A DNA stretch of 64,000 bases, taken from positions 75 to 64,074 of the forward strand of contig CP129472.1 in NCBI GenBank assembly GCA_030583725.1. Reading direction: 5' to 3'. The notes below the pieces were generated by a model. It saw nothing but the letters and a program-made list of their open reading frames with translations. It had not been told where the DNA came from and made no database searches. Position numbers and translations under genes: made by a program. Below are positions 5,186-51,891 of this stretch, in pieces (positions within the stretch are counted from its first letter, which is position 1; each line of letters opens with the position of its first letter). The DNA comes from a bacterium. GTDB lineage: Bacteria > Patescibacteriota > Microgenomatia > UBA8517.

Positions 5186-7774
5186 ATGGCAGATACAAAC
5201 CTTAGGGTACCACCACATTCGAAAGAAGCAGAGGAAAGTGTTCTTGGAGCCTTGCTTCTAGATAAAGACGCGGTTATCGCTGTTGCAGAGTTTTTATTGC
5301 CAGAAGACTTCTATGATGAAAGAAACAAGGAGATATATGAAGCAATCCTTTCACTTTACGAAGAACGTACCCCGGTTGATGTTTTAACCGTCGCCGAGCG
5401 TCTAAAAAAACAAAAAAATTTAAAAAAAATCGGTGGTTCATCATACTTAACAGATATAGCAAATAAAGTTCCAACTGCTGCCCATGTTGAGCATTATGGA
5501 AAAATAGTTAAAGACCAATCTGTTAAAAGATCATTAATGAAAGCAGCTTCAAGATTGGTAGAGTTTTCTGTTGACGAGAGTATGTCATCTGGTGCTTTGT
5601 TAGATAGAGCAGAGTCTGAGGTTTTTTCCTTAACCCAGAAGCATCTAACCAAAGCTTTTACCTCAGTTCGCGATACTTTAGTGGAAAGTTTTGATAGGTT
5701 AGACGAACTTCATAAAATGGGAGATACTGGTTTACGTGGAATTGCCACAGGTTTTGATGATTTAGATAATGCATTGGCAGGACTTCAAAAAAGCAACCTT
5801 GTAATATTAGCAGCAAGACCTGGGGTTGGGAAAACAACCCTTGCTATGAACATCGCACAGAATGCTTCAGTTAAAAATAAAAAGAATATTGGTTACTTCT
5901 CACTGGAAATGAGCAAGGAAGAGCTAGTTGATAGATTGTTGGTGAACGAAGCTGATATTGATGCTTGGCGATTAAAGACAGGGAAGTTAAGTGAGGAAGA
6001 CTTTACAAAACTTAGTAATGCAATGGGTATTTTGGCTGAGGCTCCTTTATATATAGATGATACCCCCGCCCTTTCAATTCTTGAGATGAGAACCAAGGCC
6101 AGAAGACTACAAGTAGAACAGGGATTAGATATGATAATCGTAGATTATTTACAACTTGCCCGAAGTAGAAATTTAGAAAATAGGGTACAGGAAGTTTCAG
6201 AAATATCACAGGGTCTTAAGAACTTGGCAAGAGAGCTAAAAATCCCCGTTCTTGCTCTTTCTCAGTTGTCTCGTGGAGTTGAATCAAGAAACATTAAAAA
6301 ACCCCAACTATCTGATCTTCGCGAATCTGGCTGTTTATTAGGCGAAAGTTTAATAACTTTATTTCCGTCAGGAGAACGGGTTAGAATTGATTCGCTAATA
6401 GGTAAAACAAACTTTAGTATAATTTCATTAAATTCTAGTTTAAAACTAGAACCATCGCTTGTAAGTAAGGTTTTTCCAAGCGGGAGAAAGAAAGTTTATA
6501 GACTTCTTTTGAAAAGCGGTCGAGAAGTTATTGCTTCAGGAAATCATAAGTTTTTGAAACTAGATGAATGGATTAGGCTCGACAAACTTGAAGTTGGTGA
6601 CAGATTAGCGGTCCCAAGGACGTTGCCTGCGACGGGAAGTGAAAATGTATCAGATGATAGGCTGATAGTTCTAGCACACATGATAGGGGATGGTTGTTAT
6701 GTCAAAAGACAACCAATTCACTACACAAATTCTGATACAGAATTACTAGACATAGTCCAAAAGTCAGCCATAAAAGCCTTTTCGGTCGTTCCGAGAAAAG
6801 TTAAACAAGAAAATTGGTACCATCTTTACCTCTCTTCAAAAGATAAGTTAGCAAGGGGAATCAGGAACCCGATTGTTAAATGGTTTGATGAAGAATTAAA
6901 AATATATGGTCAACATTCTAGGGAAAAAATAATACCTGATCAAATTTTTAAACTTAACAATATTCAAATAAAACTTTTTTTAAATCATCTATGGGCAACA
7001 GATGGATGTATTCATACACAAATTGCTAAAAAATCAAAAGTATCTGTCTATTATGGGTCTGGAAGTAAACTTTTGGCTACTCAGGTTCAACATTTGCTAT
7101 TAAGACTTGGGATAATTTCTAAATTATCAAAATCATCTAAAATTGGTTACGAAGATATGTGGAATGTTCATATTCAGGGGAAGATTGAACAATTAAAGTT
7201 TCTAAGGGACGTGGGTTGTGTTGGTAAAAAGAAAGATGAAGTAACAAAGGCTATTAAATTTTTGAATTCAATCTCAGAAAATCCAAATAATGATGTAGTT
7301 CCAAAAGAAATATGGAATGAAATAAAAAAGATACTGATATCTAAAAATATAACTACGAGAGAATTTCATCAAAAAATGGATTGGGCATATAGCGGAACAC
7401 AAAGATATGGAAATGGAATTAGTAGGGCAAGACTTACTAAAGTTTACAAAATATTAAAGACAGATATTTTAGACAGATATGCACGATCTGACATTTATTG
7501 GGATGAGGTGAAATCAATCAACTATGTAGGAGTCAGAGAAGTTTATGATGCTACTGTTCCAAAAAATTCTAATTTTGTTGCCAATGACATCATTGTTCAT
7601 AACAGCATAGAGCAGGATGCTGACGTTGTTATGTTTTTATGGAGGGAAGACGACGAAAAGGGTGAAAACATTATGCTTGATATTGCCAAACACAGAAATG
7701 GACCTCTTGCCTCAGTGCCACTATTCTTCAAAGGGGATAGAATAAAATTCTTCTCAAGGGACACTAAACATTAA
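5186..7774 (+). CDS. dnaB: Replicative DNA helicase DnaB, interrupted by an in-frame intein
   Basis: DnaB N-terminal domain (SKEAEESVLGALLLD), Walker A ARPGVGKTTLAMNIA, Walker B IIVDYLQL, and C-terminus SIEQDADVVMFLWRED...AKHRNGP. 862 aa with a 424-aa insertion between RESG and SIEQDAD. Confidence 0.9.
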   Translation: MADTNLRVPPHSKEAEESVLGALLLDKDAVIAVAEFLLPEDFYDERNKEIYEAILSLYEERTPVDVLTVAERLKKQKNLKKIGGSSYLTDIANKVPTAAHVEHYGKIVKDQSVKRSLMKAASRLVEFSVDESMSSGALLDRAESEVFSLTQKHLTKAFTSVRDTLVESFDRLDELHKMGDTGLRGIATGFDDLDNALAGLQKSNLVILAARPGVGKTTLAMNIAQNASVKNKKNIGYFSLEMSKEELVDRLLVNEADIDAWRLKTGKLSEEDFTKLSNAMGILAEAPLYIDDTPALSILEMRTKARRLQVEQGLDMIIVDYLQLARSRNLENRVQEVSEISQGLKNLARELKIPVLALSQLSRGVESRNIKKPQLSDLRESGCLLGESLITLFPSGERVRIDSLIGKTNFSIISLNSSLKLEPSLVSKVFPSGRKKVYRLLLKSGREVIASGNHKFLKLDEWIRLDKLEVGDRLAVPRTLPATGSENVSDDRLIVLAHMIGDGCYVKRQPIHYTNSDTELLDIVQKSAIKAFSVVPRKVKQENWYHLYLSSKDKLARGIRNPIVKWFDEELKIYGQHSREKIIPDQIFKLNNIQIKLFLNHLWATDGCIHTQIAKKSKVSVYYGSGSKLLATQVQHLLLRLGIISKLSKSSKIGYEDMWNVHIQGKIEQLKFLRDVGCVGKKKDEVTKAIKFLNSISENPNNDVVPKEIWNEIKKILISKNITTREFHQKMDWAYSGTQRYGNGISRARLTKVYKILKTDILDRYARSDIYWDEVKSINYVGVREVYDATVPKNSNFVANDIIVHNSIEQDADVVMFLWREDDEKGENIMLDIAKHRNGPLASVPLFFKGDRIKFFSRDTKH
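6332..7603 (+). mobile_element. DnaB intein (424 aa) with Hint domain and LAGLIDADG homing endonuclease
   Basis: Begins with Cys right after LSDLRESG (CLLGESLITL) and ends NFVANDIIVHN followed by SIEQD. Two LAGLIDADG-like motifs (LIVLAHMIGDGCY, KLFLNHLWATDGCI). C-terminal block closely resembles the known Ssp DnaB intein. Confidence 0.85.
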
Positions 7775-8041: not shown

Positions 8042-8124
8042 TGGCTGAGGAGAGAATCGAACTCTCATGGCTTTTATGCCACACGATTTTGAGTCGTGCG
8101 TGTCTACCGTTCCACCACCCAGCC
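8042..8124 (-). tRNA. tRNA-Leu (anticodon CAA), long variable arm, CCA not encoded
   Basis: Reverse complement reads GGCTGGGTGGTGGAACGGTAGACACGCACGA-CTCAAAA-TCGTGTGGCATAAAAGCCATGAGAGTTCGATTCTCTCCTCAGCCA. 7-bp acceptor stem, T-loop TTCGATT, anticodon loop CUCAAAA, extra arm. Confidence 0.8.
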
Positions 8125-21092: not shown

Positions 21093-24000
21093 TTATTCTC
21101 CTTCTTCCTCATCCCCCGTCTTATCCATTACAGTAGCTGCAGCAATGGAGTCACCCTTGTTTGCAAATCTCATAATAATTACTCCTTGTGTTGCTCTACC
21201 TAGTTGTGGAATGTTTTTAACAGGTAGTTTAATTACTTGACCTTTTTTGGAAGTAATCACTAATTGGTCAGAGTTTTCAGTGACCAAGCAAGCACAGGCC
21301 AACTCCCCTGTTTTTTCTGTAATAATACAAGCTTTAACTCCTTTACCTGCTCTTTTTTGAATTGGAAATAGATCAAATTTAGTTCTTTTGCCGAGACCGT
21401 GAATCGAGAGAGTCAATATATCTCTAAAGACCTTTTTTCTTTTATCTGTTGGAACTACCAATTTATCAGGAAAAACTTCCATACCGATTATTTGGTCGTC
21501 CTTATCAAATTTCATACCAGTTACGCCAGTTGTTGCTCTGCCCATTGGTCTGACGTTGCTTTCGGGAAATCTTATAGACATTCCTTTTCTAGTAAGAAGC
21601 ATAATGTTGTCTGAACCGTAAGTTAAATGTGCAGAAATCAAACTATCATTGTTTTGAAGTTTTATAGCAATTAAACCACTTGCTCTTAAATTTTCAAATT
21701 GTTTTAACTCAGTTTTTTTAATTATTCCTGATGCAGTTGATAGAATTAGATTCTTTGCTCCAGATTCTCTATCCATTGGTAAAATTGACTTAACAATTTC
21801 ACCACTTTCAAGGTTTAAGAAATTTACTAAGGCTTGGCCCTTTGCTTGCCTACTACTTTCTGGTATTTCATAGGCTTTTGTTCCAAAAACACGACCTTTA
21901 TTTGTAAAAAATAAAATCTGATCATGTGTACTGGCGGTAACCAAGTGATCAATTTCGTCTTCTTCTTTTGTGGTCATTCCAATCACTCCCTTTCCTCCTC
22001 TTCTCTGAGCTTTATAGGTATTTTTTGAAACTCTTTTAATATAGCCAGTTTTTGTAACAGTTACCAAACAATCTTCTTTTGCAACCAAATCTTCTTCACT
22101 AAACTCCCCTATTTTACTTTTATATATTTTAGTTTTTCTTGAGTCTCCAAACTTTGCCTTAAGATCGGTTAACTCTTTGGTTATGATTTGAAGTATTCTC
22201 TTGGGGTCTTTTAAGATTGCGATCAACTCATCTATTATCTTCTTTATTTCCTGATACTCTTTTTCAATTTTTTCTCTTTCTAGAGCAGCAAGACGCCTAA
22301 GTTGCATATCAAGAATAGCGATACTCTGTATCTCAGATAGTTTAAACCTGCTTATTAAATTAGTTTTGGCTTCTTCTTGTGTTTTACTCTCTCTAATTGT
22401 TTTAATAACTGCGTCTAAATTATCTAGTGCAATTTTTAAACCTTCCAAAATATGCGCTCTTCTTTTTGCTTCAGTTAATTCAAATATTGTTCTTCTTACT
22501 ACCACCTTTTGTCTGTGTTTAATATATTCAACAAGAATTTGTTTTAGGTTTAAAGTGTGTGGTGTTCCATCAACCAACGCAACAAAGTTTGCAGGAAACG
22601 TTGTCTGGAGTCTTGTGTGTTTGTATAAGTTATTCAAAACTGACTTTGGCTTTGCATCTTTTTTAAGGTCAATTGCAACCCTCATACCATCTTTGTCCGA
22701 TTCGTCTCGAAGATCTGCTATACCTACCATCTTTTTGTCTTTGACAAGCTCTGCAATTTTAGCTACCATTTCCGCCTTGTTAACTTGATATGGAATTTCA
22801 GAAATTATTATTTGAGATTTTTTACCATTATCAACTATTTCTGCTATACCACGGACCACAATTCTACCCCGCCCGGTTGCATATACTTCTTTTAGTGACA
22901 TGGAGTCGTATATTGCGCCACCCGTAGGAAAGTCAGGACCTGGTAAAACTTCAGTAATTTCATCCACTGTTGCATCCGTCTCGAACGAAATTGACTTTGG
23001 ATCTACTTCCTCTTGAGTAAATGCTTTCTCTGCTCCTGATGCAATTAAATTAATCTTTTTGATAACAAACTCATTTTCTTTTTGATGCTGGTCTTGATTC
23101 TCAATAGTGACTTTACCTTTTGCAATCATCATAAAAATTGCGTCAATAACTTCAGTTAGATTGTGTGGAGGAATCTTGGTGGCCATACCAACAGCAATTC
23201 CCTCAGAGCCCATAAGTAGTAAGTTTGGCAAAAGAGCTGGTAAAAATACTGGTTCTTTTAGGGTGGTATCAAAGTTATCAACGTAGTCAACAGTATCCTT
23301 TTCCATATCTGCAAGGATATATTCAGAGATTGGAGAAAGCTTAGCCTCAGTATAACGCATGGCTGCTGCTGAGTCACCATCCACTGAGTTGTGGACAAAT
23401 ATGCCAGAGTCAAGCGCAAAGTTATGCCATGGGGCTATTGTTAAATCGTAAACGTCTTCAATCTCAGAGAGGTATTTAACTTTTAGTATTTTGTGGTTGT
23501 ATAGTTTTGCTTGATTTACGACTTCGGAAAAATTTGTAAAATATTTCAGTGTATTTTCTAGATTTGGTATACCATTTCTTCTCTCTTTTTCGTAAATTGT
23601 TTCTGTTAGGTGGTCGTATCTTACTAGAAGATGAGAAGTATAACTCAATATTTTGGCTTTAACCATCTTTTCTCTAGATTTAGGATTAATCCATTGTAAT
23701 CTTGCTTTATTTCTATGAAGCGCTACAATTTTTTCATCTGACCAAAGGGCTTGGGCCATTTTTTTGAAATGGTTTTTAGGGTATTTTGCACGATACTCCT
23801 CGTTTTGCCATAATAGTTTTGAAGACTTACTCTGTTTTTCTTTCCAGTCCTTTTTGTTTGTCAACTCCTTTATTATTCTTGACATGTGTTCTCTATGTTC
23901 AGGTTTGTTCCATAATTCAAGAGATGTCTTTCGCATATGTTCACTCATCACTTTTCTGTATTCTTCGTCCTGCCATCTTTTCTTCATCTCTTTTGATTTA

Positions 24001-25148
24001 AGTATGCTCATTATTTTTTGGAATTCACTACTTTTCCACATTTCCTTAAGTTTTTTACTAGAAATGTCTGACATGAATTTTTTATAATTTTCATCTTCCC
24101 ACAACTTCTTAACTCGGAGAGAATGTCTTTTTATAAATTCAGGATCTTTCCAAAGTTTCTTGTTTAAGTTTTTTGCACGTTCTGAGAGAATATCGTGTGC
24201 ATCAGACAAGAACTTATCCCTACCTTCTTTTATTTTTTTAACGTACAATGGATCATTTTTGTGTCTCCAACTGGCCATTTTATAATGAAGCTTCCAGTGA
24301 TCTTCCCAGCCCATTCTTTGAATATTGTCAGGATTGTTATTGAGTTTATTAAAGTCTATGTGGTGACGAACACGACCCGCTGATTTTTTATAACTTTTGT
24401 TATTTAAGTTCCAAAGATCCGCCAAATGGTGGATAAACTCAGAATTATTACTAAGTGGCTGGTGAATCATCTCATAACCTTTTAAGTTCTTATCCAAAGA
24501 CCCATCGCTTTTGGTTATGTAAAGTGGCATTAAGGATTGTCCAGACGTCAAGTCTTTAGCTTTTTTGTATTTTCCGTTTCTAAGTAAGAACTTATGGTCA
24601 GGTGTACAACGTATTTTTTCACCGTTATCTAGAGTTACCTCCACCAATTCAGCACTTTTACGAGTCAGTCTAGGGTTTTTAATTTCAGAAATTTCAATAA
24701 CTTTATTTTTAGTATTAAAGGTAAATCCCCAGTGTCGACTTCCCTTTTTTTGCTCTTTTATTAATTCTCCAAAGTTTAGACTTCTTCCGTCTGCAAGTTT
24801 AATTTTTGTGTCTTTTGTAAAACAACCAAAGTTACCCTGACCGCGAACAAGTGGGTATCTCATCGAAAAGTCTTGGGCAAGTCTAACCATTGTGTCATAG
24901 ACTGCGCTGTCACCGTGTGGGTGGTACTTTCCTAACACCTCACCTACAACCTTGGCAGACTTTGTAAAGCTAGCTGTATGTTTAAGTCCCATCTGCGCCA
25001 TGGCATACAAAATTCTTCTGTGAACTGGTTTTAAACCGTCTCTAACATCTGGAAGTGCACGAGCAACAATGACACTCATTGCATAATCAACGTACGACTT
25101 AGATAACTCTGAAGTTATTTCTATTTGTTGAAGTTTTCCAATATCCAT
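21093..25148 (-). CDS. gyrA: DNA gyrase subunit A, interrupted by an in-frame intein
   Basis: RALPDVRDGLKPVHRRILYAM, GKYHPHGDSAVYDTMVRLAQDFS, then GQGNFG|[intein]|SVDGDSAAAMRYTEAKL (active-site Tyr). C-terminal beta-pinwheel repeats. 1351 aa including a 479-aa insertion. Confidence 0.9.
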   Translation of the reverse strand: MDIGKLQQIEITSELSKSYVDYAMSVIVARALPDVRDGLKPVHRRILYAMAQMGLKHTASFTKSAKVVGEVLGKYHPHGDSAVYDTMVRLAQDFSMRYPLVRGQGNFGCFTKDTKIKLADGRSLNFGELIKEQKKGSRHWGFTFNTKNKVIEISEIKNPRLTRKSAELVEVTLDNGEKIRCTPDHKFLLRNGKYKKAKDLTSGQSLMPLYITKSDGSLDKNLKGYEMIHQPLSNNSEFIHHLADLWNLNNKSYKKSAGRVRHHIDFNKLNNNPDNIQRMGWEDHWKLHYKMASWRHKNDPLYVKKIKEGRDKFLSDAHDILSERAKNLNKKLWKDPEFIKRHSLRVKKLWEDENYKKFMSDISSKKLKEMWKSSEFQKIMSILKSKEMKKRWQDEEYRKVMSEHMRKTSLELWNKPEHREHMSRIIKELTNKKDWKEKQSKSSKLLWQNEEYRAKYPKNHFKKMAQALWSDEKIVALHRNKARLQWINPKSREKMVKAKILSYTSHLLVRYDHLTETIYEKERRNGIPNLENTLKYFTNFSEVVNQAKLYNHKILKVKYLSEIEDVYDLTIAPWHNFALDSGIFVHNSVDGDSAAAMRYTEAKLSPISEYILADMEKDTVDYVDNFDTTLKEPVFLPALLPNLLLMGSEGIAVGMATKIPPHNLTEVIDAIFMMIAKGKVTIENQDQHQKENEFVIKKINLIASGAEKAFTQEEVDPKSISFETDATVDEITEVLPGPDFPTGGAIYDSMSLKEVYATGRGRIVVRGIAEIVDNGKKSQIIISEIPYQVNKAEMVAKIAELVKDKKMVGIADLRDESDKDGMRVAIDLKKDAKPKSVLNNLYKHTRLQTTFPANFVALVDGTPHTLNLKQILVEYIKHRQKVVVRRTIFELTEAKRRAHILEGLKIALDNLDAVIKTIRESKTQEEAKTNLISRFKLSEIQSIAILDMQLRRLAALEREKIEKEYQEIKKIIDELIAILKDPKRILQIITKELTDLKAKFGDSRKTKIYKSKIGEFSEEDLVAKEDCLVTVTKTGYIKRVSKNTYKAQRRGGKGVIGMTTKEEDEIDHLVTASTHDQILFFTNKGRVFGTKAYEIPESSRQAKGQALVNFLNLESGEIVKSILPMDRESGAKNLILSTASGIIKKTELKQFENLRASGLIAIKLQNNDSLISAHLTYGSDNIMLLTRKGMSIRFPESNVRPMGRATTGVTGMKFDKDDQIIGMEVFPDKLVVPTDKRKKVFRDILTLSIHGLGKRTKFDLFPIQKRAGKGVKACIITEKTGELACACLVTENSDQLVITSKKGQVIKLPVKNIPQLGRATQGVIIMRFANKGDSIAAATVMDKTGDEEEGE
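23388..24824 (-). mobile_element. GyrA intein (479 aa) with HNH-type homing endonuclease and NUMOD-like tandem helical repeats
   Basis: Starts with Cys after GQGNFG (CFTKDTKIKLADGRSL, block A) and ends IFVHN before SVDGD. HNH motif RHHIDFNKLNNNPDNIQRMGWEDHWKLH. About 9 tandem repeats of an ~17-aa unit (LWxDxEYxKxMSxxxxKK). Confidence 0.8.
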
Positions 25149-29183: not shown

Positions 29184-31686
<2,503 letters not shown>

Positions 31687-48048: not shown

Positions 48049-48093
48049 ATTATGGTGCCACTTCTGCCCATTTGGCCCTTTTGAATTGAAGTT
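48049..48093. repeat. Copy 3 of conserved ~45-nt element (forms the last 12 codons and stop of CDS 48050-49675)
   Basis: Reverse complement encodes ...LQFKRAKWAEVAP*. Confidence 0.7.
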
Positions 48094-49675
48094 GATTTGG
48101 GAAAAGCATCATTTGATCAGGTGCAAATTCAACAAGTTCTGCAGGAGTTGAGTTGTCTAGTAGTTCTCTTTCTAGCAATACACTACCATATGAGGCCAAG
48201 GATCCTCTTAAGTGCAGTTGTGTATCCCCTGCCCCTGTTGATATATTATTATCAGCCATATAAATTCCTTCAATCGCAGGACTACCACTAACTGCAGAAT
48301 CAATTGTTATATTTCCATTTACAAAGCTTGCAAAAAAACCAACTCCATCTGTTAGGTTTATATTACCGTTGATATTAAAGTTGCCTTCTTCAACAAACAA
48401 GACTACTTTTCTGGTAGTTATATCAATATCCCCCACAGTATCTAAGTTGCCAACAACCTTGTACCACTCATATCCATTTGAATCAACAACTACTCCCCCA
48501 CTTGGTAAGTCATTAATGTCATTAAAAACAATATCGTTAGGTATTAAATTTTCAAAATAACTATAATTAAATATTCTACTTAATGTTGAAGTAGTATTAG
48601 CATTCCAAATATTAACAGATATCCTTTCAGGAGTGTCTAAGTATAAATTAAGAGAAGTACCATAGACTGCAACACCTGAAAAACCACCTAAGCCATCACT
48701 TAAGAAATAATTACCAGCGGGAACTAAAGAACTTAATACCCCATTTGTTGTAACATCACCATCCATTACTTGCCACCATGGCTCGTTTGCAACAGGTGTT
48801 AAAAAACTATAATTTGTAGAAGAAGAACAACTTACACTTTGATAATTAACAATTTTTACAAAGTAAATGGTATCAGGAAGTAGGGGTGAAACAAAAGGAT
48901 AGAAGTCAGTACTACTTGCCAAATTTGCATTAACAGTACAACTAGTTCCTGTACCACAATTATTAGTTACATCGCTTTGCGTAGTTGAAACATATAAATT
49001 TTGAGACGCTCCATTAGTACCAGTTGTCCAAGTTAATAAATCATCACTAAAACTTACAGCAGAAGGTGCTGTGGTATTACAAGTAGAAAGACACTCATAG
49101 GTGTTGGCTGTGCGTCCGCTACATGTTGTAGTAGCAGGCCAACAATCCCATCTAATACAACTAGTTCTACCCGTATTTGGGTTGGTCCAATACTGTTCAC
49201 ATTCTCCACAACCTGCGGGTGTTGTTGTACATCCACACTCTGATCCTTCACTTTGTGCCGATCCTAGTTGAAACCATCCATTACAATGCCAGATCGAACC
49301 CTTACTTACACACTGTGAACCAATCAGATTATTTGTCTTTACTGTCCCCGAAGGACAGTTTACGACCCATGTGGGGTTGCATTGCGACTCACAACTTCTA
49401 CAACTCCCATTATTCGTCGTCCCGCACGGGCACGCGCTAGGGGGTGGAGTTGCACTACCACCACAGTTATCACCCCAAAGTGTGCAGGATGGTGATGAAC
49501 CACCAGAACAGTTGTCTGCTCCGCCACATGTACAATCACCACTTGCTTCTGAGCCACTTGAGGTTACACATATACAATCATCCAAACATTGAGCATTTAC
49601 ATCTTTTGTGGAAAAACCAAAAAGAAAAAAAATTGCAAAAATTAGAAATAATATAATTTTAAATATTTTTGACAT
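48050..49675 (-). CDS. Large secreted Cys-rich hypothetical protein
   Basis: Signal peptide (MSKIFKIILFLIFAIFFLFGFS). About 40 Cys in the N-terminal 200 aa. No domain recognised. Confidence 0.55.
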   Translation of the reverse strand: MSKIFKIILFLIFAIFFLFGFSTKDVNAQCLDDCICVTSSGSEASGDCTCGGADNCSGGSSPSCTLWGDNCGGSATPPPSACPCGTTNNGSCRSCESQCNPTWVVNCPSGTVKTNNLIGSQCVSKGSIWHCNGWFQLGSAQSEGSECGCTTTPAGCGECEQYWTNPNTGRTSCIRWDCWPATTTCSGRTANTYECLSTCNTTAPSAVSFSDDLLTWTTGTNGASQNLYVSTTQSDVTNNCGTGTSCTVNANLASSTDFYPFVSPLLPDTIYFVKIVNYQSVSCSSSTNYSFLTPVANEPWWQVMDGDVTTNGVLSSLVPAGNYFLSDGLGGFSGVAVYGTSLNLYLDTPERISVNIWNANTTSTLSRIFNYSYFENLIPNDIVFNDINDLPSGGVVVDSNGYEWYKVVGNLDTVGDIDITTRKVVLFVEEGNFNINGNINLTDGVGFFASFVNGNITIDSAVSGSPAIEGIYMADNNISTGAGDTQLHLRGSLASYGSVLLERELLDNSTPAELVEFAPDQMMLFPNQLQFKRAKWAEVAP

Positions 49676-50175: not shown

Positions 50176-51891
50176 TTATTGTGAAGGGTCTTTGAAATTT
50201 ATTCCCTCGATTTCTAAAAAGTTCCGTGATTGACGGGCATATGATCTTAAATTTGATTTACCAGCGACCATCATTCCCATAGAATCAAATATTCTGTATA
50301 CAACTTGAGCTTCGTAGAAGTCAGTTATCATTTTTCTATCAGAATCATTTAATGTGTGGCTATCATTATTGTATCCCCAACGTTCTGCTGCTGTTGATAT
50401 AGAGTAGATGACTATCTGTCCATTTGGTTTGGTCCATAATAAATAACCAAAGGTACTATCGACAATTGTATTTTTAGATTTTTGATCATTAATTAAATCA
50501 TTTTTAATTTCATCTGGTAGTGAATTATATTCATCCGCAGTCATTATCGTTCTAATTTCTATTGGTAGATTAAAATTTGCAGGGTGCTCCAGTGATTTCA
50601 TCTTGGAAGTCGCATACGGATCAGATCTAACGCCATAGGCAACTTTAAAGTTAAATATTCCATCATTTTTAACCATTACATGCTCAAATGCTTGTTCTGG
50701 GGTGGCAAAACCCAATTGATGTGCCAGTGAGTTCCACATATTGGCGTCATTTTTGCCTTCTGGCATTCCTACAATTCCTTTTGAGGTTCGGTCAGTAACT
50801 GAAAAAATACCAGTAGAACTCCATTTTGGATCAATGTAAGTATAGAAACTATGGTCATTACCTTCACCGTCTTTGACAATATGTTCCCCCACTCTTGTCA
50901 TCCTCATTTGTCCATCAATTTCCATTTCCATAGCAATAACTTGTTTAGTTTCATCACTCTTAATGCCATATATAACTTTAGTATCAACCCCATTTACTTG
51001 TTTTACACCATATTCAAACGTTTCAAATTGATTTTTATATTTATCTGTCATTTCAGCTGGAAATACAACGCCCCCAACAGGCACCTCAACTTTAACAAGT
51101 GAGGCCATTTTTACATTGAATATCTCTTGTGGTGACACAAGTAAACCTCCTGGTATGAAAAGTATATCTCGTGCCTCAATTTCTTCATTGGTCATCTGTG
51201 AAAGTTCAACTTCTGTCAACTCCGTGTTAAAAATCATAATAGATTTATCCAAATCCGCACCCGTAGCTGGATCCTGAGTTATACCAAGTCCTACTCTTCC
51301 TTCGGCATCAATAATCCTGTTTAAAACAATATAGATAACTTCACCCTGGTCTCCGCCAAAGATCATTGCTGTTCTACTTTTTTCTTCAACTTCAGAAGTG
51401 GCATTAAAGAATACATAAGTTGTTTCTTTTCCAGTAATGTCAACTGTTTTAACTCCAGATGCGGAGTATTCAATTGTGCTTGGATCTTCAAAAAGGTCTT
51501 TTATTCGTTGGTCCTCACCAAAGGCTCTAAACGGACCAGGTAGTTTGGAAATTATTTCGGATTCTTCAACAAACTCATAGGACATTGTAGCGTTGACTTC
51601 ACTAGTGGAAGTTGGAATTACAAACGGTTTTTCTGTTGGGGCAATTTCAGTCGTATTTTGATTATTTGATGATGTTACTTCAGGATTTATACCGTTTTTT
51701 ATACATGCCAATGATGTCCCAGCTATTGCTGCAGTGAGACTACCCCTGATAAACAATTTTGTTGTGTCTGTTAATCTATCGCTCATATTTAATTTATCAA
51801 CTTGTTTTTCTATTATTCCCTCAACACCAATATTCCATAAATCTGATTGACTAATTCTTCTCCCTAACCGTATTATTCTATCCTTATTCAT
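50176..51891 (-). CDS. Large hypothetical protein (571 aa), probably exported
   Basis: Weak signal-like segment (SLTAAIAGTSLACIKNG, lipobox-like). No domain recognised. Confidence 0.5.
   Translation of the reverse strand: MNKDRIIRLGRRISQSDLWNIGVEGIIEKQVDKLNMSDRLTDTTKLFIRGSLTAAIAGTSLACIKNGINPEVTSSNNQNTTEIAPTEKPFVIPTSTSEVNATMSYEFVEESEIISKLPGPFRAFGEDQRIKDLFEDPSTIEYSASGVKTVDITGKETTYVFFNATSEVEEKSRTAMIFGGDQGEVIYIVLNRIIDAEGRVGLGITQDPATGADLDKSIMIFNTELTEVELSQMTNEEIEARDILFIPGGLLVSPQEIFNVKMASLVKVEVPVGGVVFPAEMTDKYKNQFETFEYGVKQVNGVDTKVIYGIKSDETKQVIAMEMEIDGQMRMTRVGEHIVKDGEGNDHSFYTYIDPKWSSTGIFSVTDRTSKGIVGMPEGKNDANMWNSLAHQLGFATPEQAFEHVMVKNDGIFNFKVAYGVRSDPYATSKMKSLEHPANFNLPIEIRTIMTADEYNSLPDEIKNDLINDQKSKNTIVDSTFGYLLWTKPNGQIVIYSISTAAERWGYNNDSHTLNDSDRKMITDFYEAQVVYRIFDSMGMMVAGKSNLRSYARQSRNFLEIEGINFKDPSQ

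Follow-up and report, generated by a model that had tools for sequence, protein, structure and literature searches.

A class-1 intein with a predicted HNH homing endonuclease and a basic array of helical repeats in the gyrA gene of a Patescibacteriota bacterium

The DNA described here is a window of 64,000 nucleotides from a bacterium of the Patescibacteriota (Microgenomatia, UBA8517; assembly GCA_030583725.1, contig CP129472.1, positions 75 to 64,074 of the forward strand), and all coordinates are counted from its first letter. The open reading frame (ORF) at 21093-25148 on the minus strand encodes a protein of 1351 amino acids (aa), identified as the A subunit of DNA gyrase (GyrA) by TIGR01063 (1034 bits) and by PF00521 (DNA_topoisoIV, 2e-143). 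This gene is interrupted by an in-frame insertion of exactly 479 aa (window 23388-24824, precursor residues 109-587), which begins CFTKDT, finishes FVHN and is immediately followed by a serine. On one side lies an N-extein of 108 residues (24825-25148, minus strand) ending ...RYPLVRGQGNFG and covered by the DNA_topoisoIV and TIGR01063 matches. On the other lies a C-extein (21093-23387, minus strand, stop codon included), which starts SVDGDSAAAMRYTE and carries the DNA_topoisoIV match as well as six DNA_gyraseA_C blades detected with Pfam. After removal of the insertion, mature GyrA is 872 aa long, and the gene is best annotated as a single intein-containing gyrA.

The junction falls between Gly108 and Ser109 of mature GyrA, within the conserved loop GQGNFG|S(V/I)DGD, a position corresponding to Gly110|Ser111 in E. 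coli GyrA numbering, just beyond the quinolone-resistance region. An insertion of 479 aa between GQGNFG and SVDGD is what the initial annotation had described, and both its length and its coordinates are reproduced. The distance to the active-site Tyr, given there as 13 residues, needs correction: 11 residues separate the splice junction from this Tyr, which is residue +12 of the C-extein. The site was rightly told apart from the mycobacterial gyrA-a site, whose inteins are inserted directly after the Tyr (RY|TE), 12 residues downstream of the present junction. Elsewhere in the same extein, at residues ~200-262 (window ~22900-23090, minus strand), an extra stretch of ~45-60 aa, KGKVTIENQDQHQKENEFVIKKINLIASGAEKAFTQEEVDPKSISFETDATVDEITEV, lies between the PPHNL and GPDFPTGG motifs relative to E. 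coli GyrA. It is apparently common to the closest Woesebacteria-type homologues, whose alignments reach 100% query coverage.

The two ends of the insertion form a splicing (HINT) domain. Its N-terminal half (aa 1-105; 24510-24824, minus strand) includes Cys1 in block A and a block B that reads RCTPDH, with T74 and H77, and it is matched by TIGR01445 (intein_Nterm) at 49.3 bits against a cut-off of 24.5 (7.5e-13). The C-terminal half (aa 441-479; 23388-23504, minus strand) contains blocks F and G, ends GIFVHN, resembles the C-terminal parts of the DnaE and RadA inteins, and gives a weak match to TIGR01443 (intein_Cterm), under its cut-off. The Pfam model Intein_splicing (PF14890, cut-off 35.8 bits) gives 90.1 bits (E 1.6e-25), with a match that reaches residue 479. 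The chain is led back to the HINT fold by a short helical linker (aa 401-440; 23505-23624, minus strand), modelled with helices at 408-414, 422-425 and 432-440, and alignable with relatives. In an AlphaFold2 model of the intein built on 57 relatives (mean pLDDT 91.5), the strand-rich terminal parts match the NrdJ-1, DnaE, DnaB and RecA inteins when the whole model is compared with the PDB by Foldseek (E down to 8e-7); HINT matches were the only ones returned by this search. The residues of class-1 splicing are all present (Cys1, T74-x-x-H77, H478-N479 and Ser+1). Across the 57 relatives T74 and H77 are invariant, Cys1 is nearly so, and the terminal HN and Ser+1 are conserved. Sequence and model together support the identification of the insertion as a class-1 intein.

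This intein probably splices itself out, because it occupies the catalytic loop of GyrA, which is an essential enzyme, and little alternative is left. That it is instead a permanent extra domain of GyrA, never removed, is extremely improbable given the complete and conserved set of splicing residues, the position 11 residues from the Tyr of such an enzyme, and the presence of the same module in unrelated host proteins. The best 120 matches to the spliced GyrA (59-91% identity) also argue against such a domain, all being uninterrupted at the site. An intein-free allele comes from a metagenomic relative with 87% identity in GyrA; across the junction, this allele and the spliced sequence are colinear at the DNA level (74/90 nucleotides identical). 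A second cysteine, Cys73, stands directly before block B (RC73TPDH; window 24606-24608, minus strand) and, alongside Cys1, is at least 90% conserved in the family. From the sequence, a disulfide between Cys1 and Cys73 is conceivable, and it might render splicing sensitive to redox state.

Between the HINT halves, the first central region (aa 106-190; 24255-24509, minus strand) is a candidate HNH nuclease domain, supported by the match to phrog_7545, HNH_3 matches in relatives, the secondary structure of the AlphaFold2 model and matches to viral structures. Its first elements, a pair of short strands and a helix, span aa 118-141, and Y117, H132, D136 and N139 are invariant. The core motif VRHHIDFNKLNNNPDNIQRMGWEDHWKLHY follows (aa 152-181; 24282-24371, minus strand), visible in the sequence, in the invariant columns and in the modelled strands and helix. 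It contains, at residues 154-180, the string HHIDFNKLNNNPDNIQRMGWEDHWKLH and reads H154-H155-x-D157...N162-N163-x-P-x-N167...H176...H180. Among relatives H155, N163, P165, N167 and H180 are invariant, while conservation of H154, D157, N162, R170 and H176 is complete or at least 90%. The model places one strand at 152-155, a second at 168-171 and a helix at 173-190, with a local pLDDT of at least 95. In such an arrangement H155 would be the general base, N163 and N167 structural asparagines, and H176 and H180 residues carried on the helix.

The identity of this domain is further indicated by PHROG family 7545 ("HNH endonuclease"), which matches at 3.7e-7, and by HNH_3, found in 17 of the 57 relatives (E<=0.05; best 6e-4) and the sole nuclease family in Pfam that matches the intein family. 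HNH_3 reaches 25.9 bits in P0282, which was considered as a free-standing HNH-plus-repeat protein and proved to be an intein fragment. When the central domain (model pLDDT 95.6) is compared by Foldseek with predicted viral structures, the matches are almost all phage HNH or homing endonucleases, including some labelled I-HmuI and NUMOD4; they span 77-130 aligned columns at an rmsd of mostly 2-10 Å, the model residues that align being unstated. Together these results support, though not at a curated threshold, a strand-strand-helix nuclease of the I-HmuI/HNH_3 type. In phages, several such enzymes act as nickases.

The nuclease domain is followed by a basic array of helical repeats (aa 191-400; 23625-24254, minus strand), recognized by its charge, its tryptophan spacing, a repeat hidden Markov model (HMM) and the modelled helices. 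Its net charge is +25 and its pI 10.0, that of the whole intein being 9.8. Residues ~186-400 are modelled as helices of 14-22 residues, separated by turns of one or two residues at W-x-D-P. Nine Trp-led units lie at 23640-24155 (minus strand): aa 224-240, 241-261, 262-282, 283-303, 304-325, 326-337 (weak), 338-359, 360-376 (weak) and 377-395. The repeat pattern is W-x-D-P-E-[YF]-R-x-K-M-S, and the family consensus is LWQDPEYREKMSEALSKRNKK. The HMM, with 21 columns and 97 units taken from other family members only, recovers seven units in the present intein at a domain E<0.01, for a total of 69 bits. By comparison, 300 shuffles of the same region give a mean of -5.7 bits, a maximum of 12.3 bits and at most one unit. 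The ~9 tandem repeats of the initial annotation therefore survive as nine Trp-led segments, seven of them statistically supported, and are not merely compositional. The proposed period of ~17 aa does not hold, since successive tryptophans are 17, 21, 21, 21, 22, 12, 22 and 17 residues apart, mostly within 17-22 and usually 21. A search for tandem repeats at the DNA level in this region found none. The repeats are real, ancient and diverged, because the HMM score lies far above the shuffles and nothing is left of them at the DNA level.

Where else do these repeats occur? Among 1.84 billion representative proteins searched, 728 clusters were related to the central domain, and 140 of them were examined. 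HINT signals were present in 99 and absent from the other 41, which include complete genes internal to contigs. The partners of the repeats are varied: in P0358 and P0374 an HNH_3 domain stands at the N-terminus, in P0262, P0265 and P0287 an HNH domain at the C-terminus, P0261 and P0273 combine a zinc finger with a T7-endonuclease-I-like domain (Phage_endo_I), and P0354 has a Vsr/DUF559 domain. In P0272, a protein of 748 aa, the repeats are fused to REase_MTES_1575, a PD-(D/E)XK nuclease-like domain, and to a DNA-modification domain of the Mom family (68 bits); this partner is no simple homing nuclease. Nuclease-associated modular DNA-binding domains are defined precisely by accompanying varied nucleases (PMC3239194). 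The array is read as the DNA-binding part of the intein, a nuclease-associated module, mainly because the repeats adjoin several unrelated nuclease domains; domain context and charge together make this role likely.

A different view of the array is that it does not bind DNA at all, being a spacer or a protein-interaction or oligomerization domain similar to GerD or to the DP domain of STI1. No Pfam or NCBIfam model covers the array, and the Pfam model GerD (PF17898) gives 22-23 bits here, against a cut-off of 29.5; it exceeds that cut-off in some relatives, up to 46 bits in P0261. STI1-HOP_DP likewise matches some relatives, and the high pLDDT of the model suggests a folded helical body over a loose string. 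However, nucleases and DNA-modifying enzymes account for all the partner domains examined, the array carries a strong positive charge, and the GerD, STI1, nitrile-hydratase and lantibiotic-leader matches all rest on a short W/x-D-P-E-F helix-cap pattern, without spore or chaperone context. A non-DNA-binding array is accordingly judged improbable. GerD as the identity of the repeats was rejected, its score being under the cut-off and the intein lying in gyrA of a non-sporulating lineage; matches to GemA and to an insect allergen were set aside as pattern matches under threshold. The same repeats lift GerD, STI1-HOP_DP and the NCBIfam mersacidin-leader model over or near their cut-offs in P0261, P0263, P0272, P0276, P0287, P0314 and P0336, and these matches fall in evident nucleases. 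Matches of this kind, to GerD, STI1 DP, nitrile hydratase and lantibiotic leaders, are misleading and carry a risk of false positives, and a dedicated repeat model would clean up annotation.

The relation of the array to NUMOD3 also has to be considered, since the initial annotation had likened the repeats to that family. The analogy holds: the NUMOD3 units of I-TevI, I-BmoI and I-HmuI and the present repeats are all short, basic and helical, stand beside varied nucleases and share a [KR]-x-K-[IM]-S-E core. Homology is not borne out by the profile, as PF07460 finds nothing in the intein at E<=1, in its repeat region searched separately at E<=10, or in the 57 relatives, while I-TevI, as a positive control, gives NUMOD3 at 19.3 bits with the same library. 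The present repeats also differ in their distinct Trp/Asp-Pro frame and in reaching up to ~11 copies. In I-TevI and I-BmoI, NUMOD3 is present in one to three copies (PMC2853131).

The repeats might nonetheless be true NUMOD3 units, very divergent and sharing ancestry with the helix that I-TevI and I-HmuI place in the minor groove. Their D-P-E-Y-R-x-K-M-S-E segment can be aligned with S183-D-I-T-K-S-K-I-S191-E of I-TevI, where S191, within the minor-groove helix, contacts the DNA backbone (PMC2853131). This helix (residues 187-195) is also where the best local alignment of the repeat HMM in I-TevI falls, and the array of the free-standing P0262 ends ...RMSGENNPNWRGG, like the G-x-N-N segment that precedes the I-TevI helix. 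Keeping company with several nuclease families is, moreover, the defining habit of NUMODs. Against this homology, besides the unmatched profile, the I-TevI alignment reaches just -1.6 bits (E=0.28 against a single sequence) and is not significant, and the conserved Trp and Asp-Pro of the repeats are not seen in the NUMOD3 segment of I-TevI. The His/Gly frame conserved in NUMOD3 is in turn not seen in the present repeats. True membership of NUMOD3 is thus unlikely. A broader and still tentative proposal, more doubtful than not, is that the ~21-aa unit is an undescribed nuclease-associated DNA-binding repeat, either an additional module of the NUMOD type or a NUMOD3 that has diverged far. The number of tandem copies (0 to ~11) would set the length of DNA contacted, and the unit would have been shuffled between HNH inteins, HNH enzymes that stand free, nucleases resembling T7 endonuclease I or Vsr, and a Mom-like DNA modifier. 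Were this true, and were each helix to read a short DNA segment, the array could serve as a natural, modular scaffold for recognition.

Taken as a whole, the insertion is very probably a class-1 intein equipped with an HNH homing endonuclease of its own and a DNA-binding repeat array. The HINT domain would splice itself out after translation by means of Cys1, T74/H77, H478-N479 and Ser+1, leaving intact GyrA. The freed, basic protein of 479 aa would then recognize intein-free gyrA at about GGnCArGGnAAyTTyGGn|TCnrTnGAyGGnGAy. This target was reconstructed from 66 loci as GGnCAaGGnAATTTtGGn|TCnaTnGAtGGnGAt, in which codon positions 1 and 2 are fixed and position 3 is free. There, ~9-11 basic helices of the ~21-aa unit may lie along the DNA in an extended footprint, and the I-HmuI/HNH_3-type metal nuclease (H155, N167, H180) would nick or cut it. 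Recombinational repair from the intein-containing copy would finally spread the element, the process known as homing.

Several results weigh against this interpretation. The initial annotation proposed an HNH nuclease, a claim upheld by the motif string, the conserved residues, the fold and the PHROG match, and left without the profile evidence by which it was to be checked: PF01844 (HNH) has no match in the intein. HNH_3 (PF13392) itself scores just 12.2-15.3 bits in the intein against a cut-off of 24.8, with 15 residues aligned. A profile of the family's HNH region returned no solved HNH structure from the PDB sequences (matches to an oxygenase beta subunit and to ribosomal protein S14 were dismissed as chance), and Foldseek found nothing significant for the central domain in the PDB (best E=5.5). 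The E-values of the viral structure matches are modest (1.5e-4 to 0.07), and the pTM of the structure model is just 0.44-0.64. The units at 326-337 and 360-376, which score under zero, are degenerate, and the present copy is ~44 aa shorter than the 521-528 aa size class of the family, with ~two distal repeats lost; from the shorter array and the two degenerate units it follows that the endonuclease could be weakened.

These last points lead to the possibility that splicing is intact and the endonuclease is decaying, at a late stage of the homing cycle in which the element persists since precise deletion is rare. The family offers a scale for judging this. The smallest member has 163 aa and the largest 542 aa, and the number of repeat units detected rises with length (r=0.78). 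Mini-inteins of 163-263 aa have none, the 391-394 aa class has 2-4 (usually 3-4), relatives of 520-521 aa have 4-5 and those of 523-542 aa have 8-11; seven are detected in the present copy of 479 aa. Besides the missing ~44 aa near the end of the array and the two sub-zero units, the repeat-free mini-inteins at the same site show that decay does occur in the family. On the other hand, all family-invariant HNH residues are intact, the reading frame is open throughout, and the 391-394 aa class is the commonest and is conserved with its 3-4 repeats, so that fewer repeats need not mean inactivity. A decaying endonuclease is therefore regarded as rather unlikely, and a functional homing endonuclease within the intein is still preferred. 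Whatever the state of this copy, a single target site offers a natural series, from mini-inteins through the 391 aa class and the 479 aa copy to the 521-542 aa class, which lends itself to work on the gain, trimming and loss of homing endonucleases.

The HNH-plus-repeat architecture had been thought less common, an idea that cannot be maintained since inteins at this site are widespread in public data. The intein search returned 288 proteins, mostly GyrA fragments interrupted exactly at GQGN[FWYM]G|S, and some of them already bear the NCBI name "intein-containing DNA gyrase subunit A". Their hosts include Patescibacteria, Omnitrophota, Nanoarchaeota, Acidobacteria, Syntrophales and Nitrosotalea, among others. 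When each species was represented by a single genome, a confirmed relative was found in at least 566 species genomes. Among the best 80 intein loci, ~75 are occupied at the same GyrA site, in many phyla that include Patescibacteria, Omnitrophota and DPANN archaea, and sizes cluster at 390-394 and 521-528 aa. Full-length relatives (31-37% identity) are inserted in GyrB at EGDSAGG|SAKQGR, including those of cultured Halobellus and Halorubrum, and more distant ones are found in RtcB and in dCTP deaminase. The patchy distribution and the range from mini to full size are the usual signature of a homing cycle.

The host is Woesebacteria/Microgenomates-like, within the candidate phyla radiation (CPR), and the named proteins among the best 120 GyrA matches belong to Woesebacteria or Microgenomates and to other Patescibacteria. 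The element was probably acquired horizontally, because these closest GyrA relatives have no intein; the closest inteins are ~50% identical and reside in GyrA proteins that are themselves just ~58% identical. Base composition gives no sign of a recent foreign origin, the GC content being 33.5% in the intein, 36.5% in the extein and 34.6% in the window. The literature searched contains no description of the present GyrA site, nor of inteins in CPR/Patescibacteria, and Novikova et al. list GyrA inteins by phylum only. The element belongs to a known family of HNH inteins in type II topoisomerase genes, at a site that is already heavily populated. What appears freshest is the repeat array, as an unmodelled, seemingly shuffled and probably DNA-binding module.

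The first HNH intein was reported in 1997 (Dalgaard et al., as cited in PMC5050341), and a gyrB intein allele is common to haloarchaea and cyanobacteria (PMC4071816). The GyrB HNH inteins found in the databases have the same HINT type, an HNH motif and repeats, and align with the present intein over their full length at 31-37% identity. They differ in their host and site (GyrB at EGDSAGG|SAKQGR, against GyrA at GQGNFG|SVDGD) and in the number of repeats, 2-4 being detected in them against 7-9 here. The intein of the 1997 report is reportedly that of Synechocystis GyrB; the first 102 residues of the present intein are 49% identical to the N-terminus of the Ssp GyrB intein, a figure to be taken as a lead only. 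In the present window GyrB (29184-31121, minus strand) is free of inteins, though GyrB commonly hosts this HNH-intein family. The Mxe and Mle GyrA inteins (gyrA-a) share the host protein and the catalytic region around the Tyr, and are of the mini or LAGLIDADG types. The structure of the Mxe GyrA intein is not among the listed sequence and fold matches of the present intein, which therefore looks like an independent invasion.

Phage enzymes of the I-HmuI/HNH_3 group have a comparable layout, in which N-terminal strands precede an HHxD...NN..N...H strand-strand-helix core and then a helical DNA-binding extension. They are intron-encoded or free-standing, whereas the present nuclease is embedded in an intein. 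In I-HmuI the DNA-binding part consists of two helices and a helix-turn-helix, in contrast to the long tandem array found here.

The repeat module is rare in cultured phages. Aeromonas phage phiA8-29 encodes a "homing endonuclease" (YP_009833045; NC_048660.1 51278-52237) with the same W-x-D-P-E-Y-R repeats, in two units (E ~1e-9 to 1e-10), preceded by a classical N-terminal HNH motif (HHIVPR...N...H). Its gene is free-standing, without a HINT domain, and lies between the genes for the medium and large subunits of topoisomerase II. In Bacillus phage SP-15, gp022 ("hypothetical protein"; stretch L087, 1853-3472) contains an unannotated intein with the order HINT-N, HNH, repeats and HINT-C, supported by local HMM matches of 4.5e-22, 1.1e-16 and 3e-15. 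The C-extein of gp022 starts CVTGGIGLGKST, which looks like a P-loop. The module is thus tied to type IIA topoisomerase genes, by inteins in GyrA and GyrB and by a free-standing phage gene, and this link is a small lead on how endonuclease specificity moves between the intein and free-standing lifestyles.

As for the rest of the window, an Rfam scan found a distant tRNA at 8042-8124 only, with nothing in the intein region. Two large ORFs on the minus strand, one of 541 aa (48050-49675) and one of 571 aa (50176-51891), match nothing in Pfam at E<=1e-5. The second intein announced by the initial annotation was confirmed in the DnaB helicase (862 aa; 5186-7774, plus strand) by Intein_splicing (3e-28) and LAGLIDADG_3 (2e-20); it covers precursor residues ~391-806 and is unrelated to the GyrA intein.

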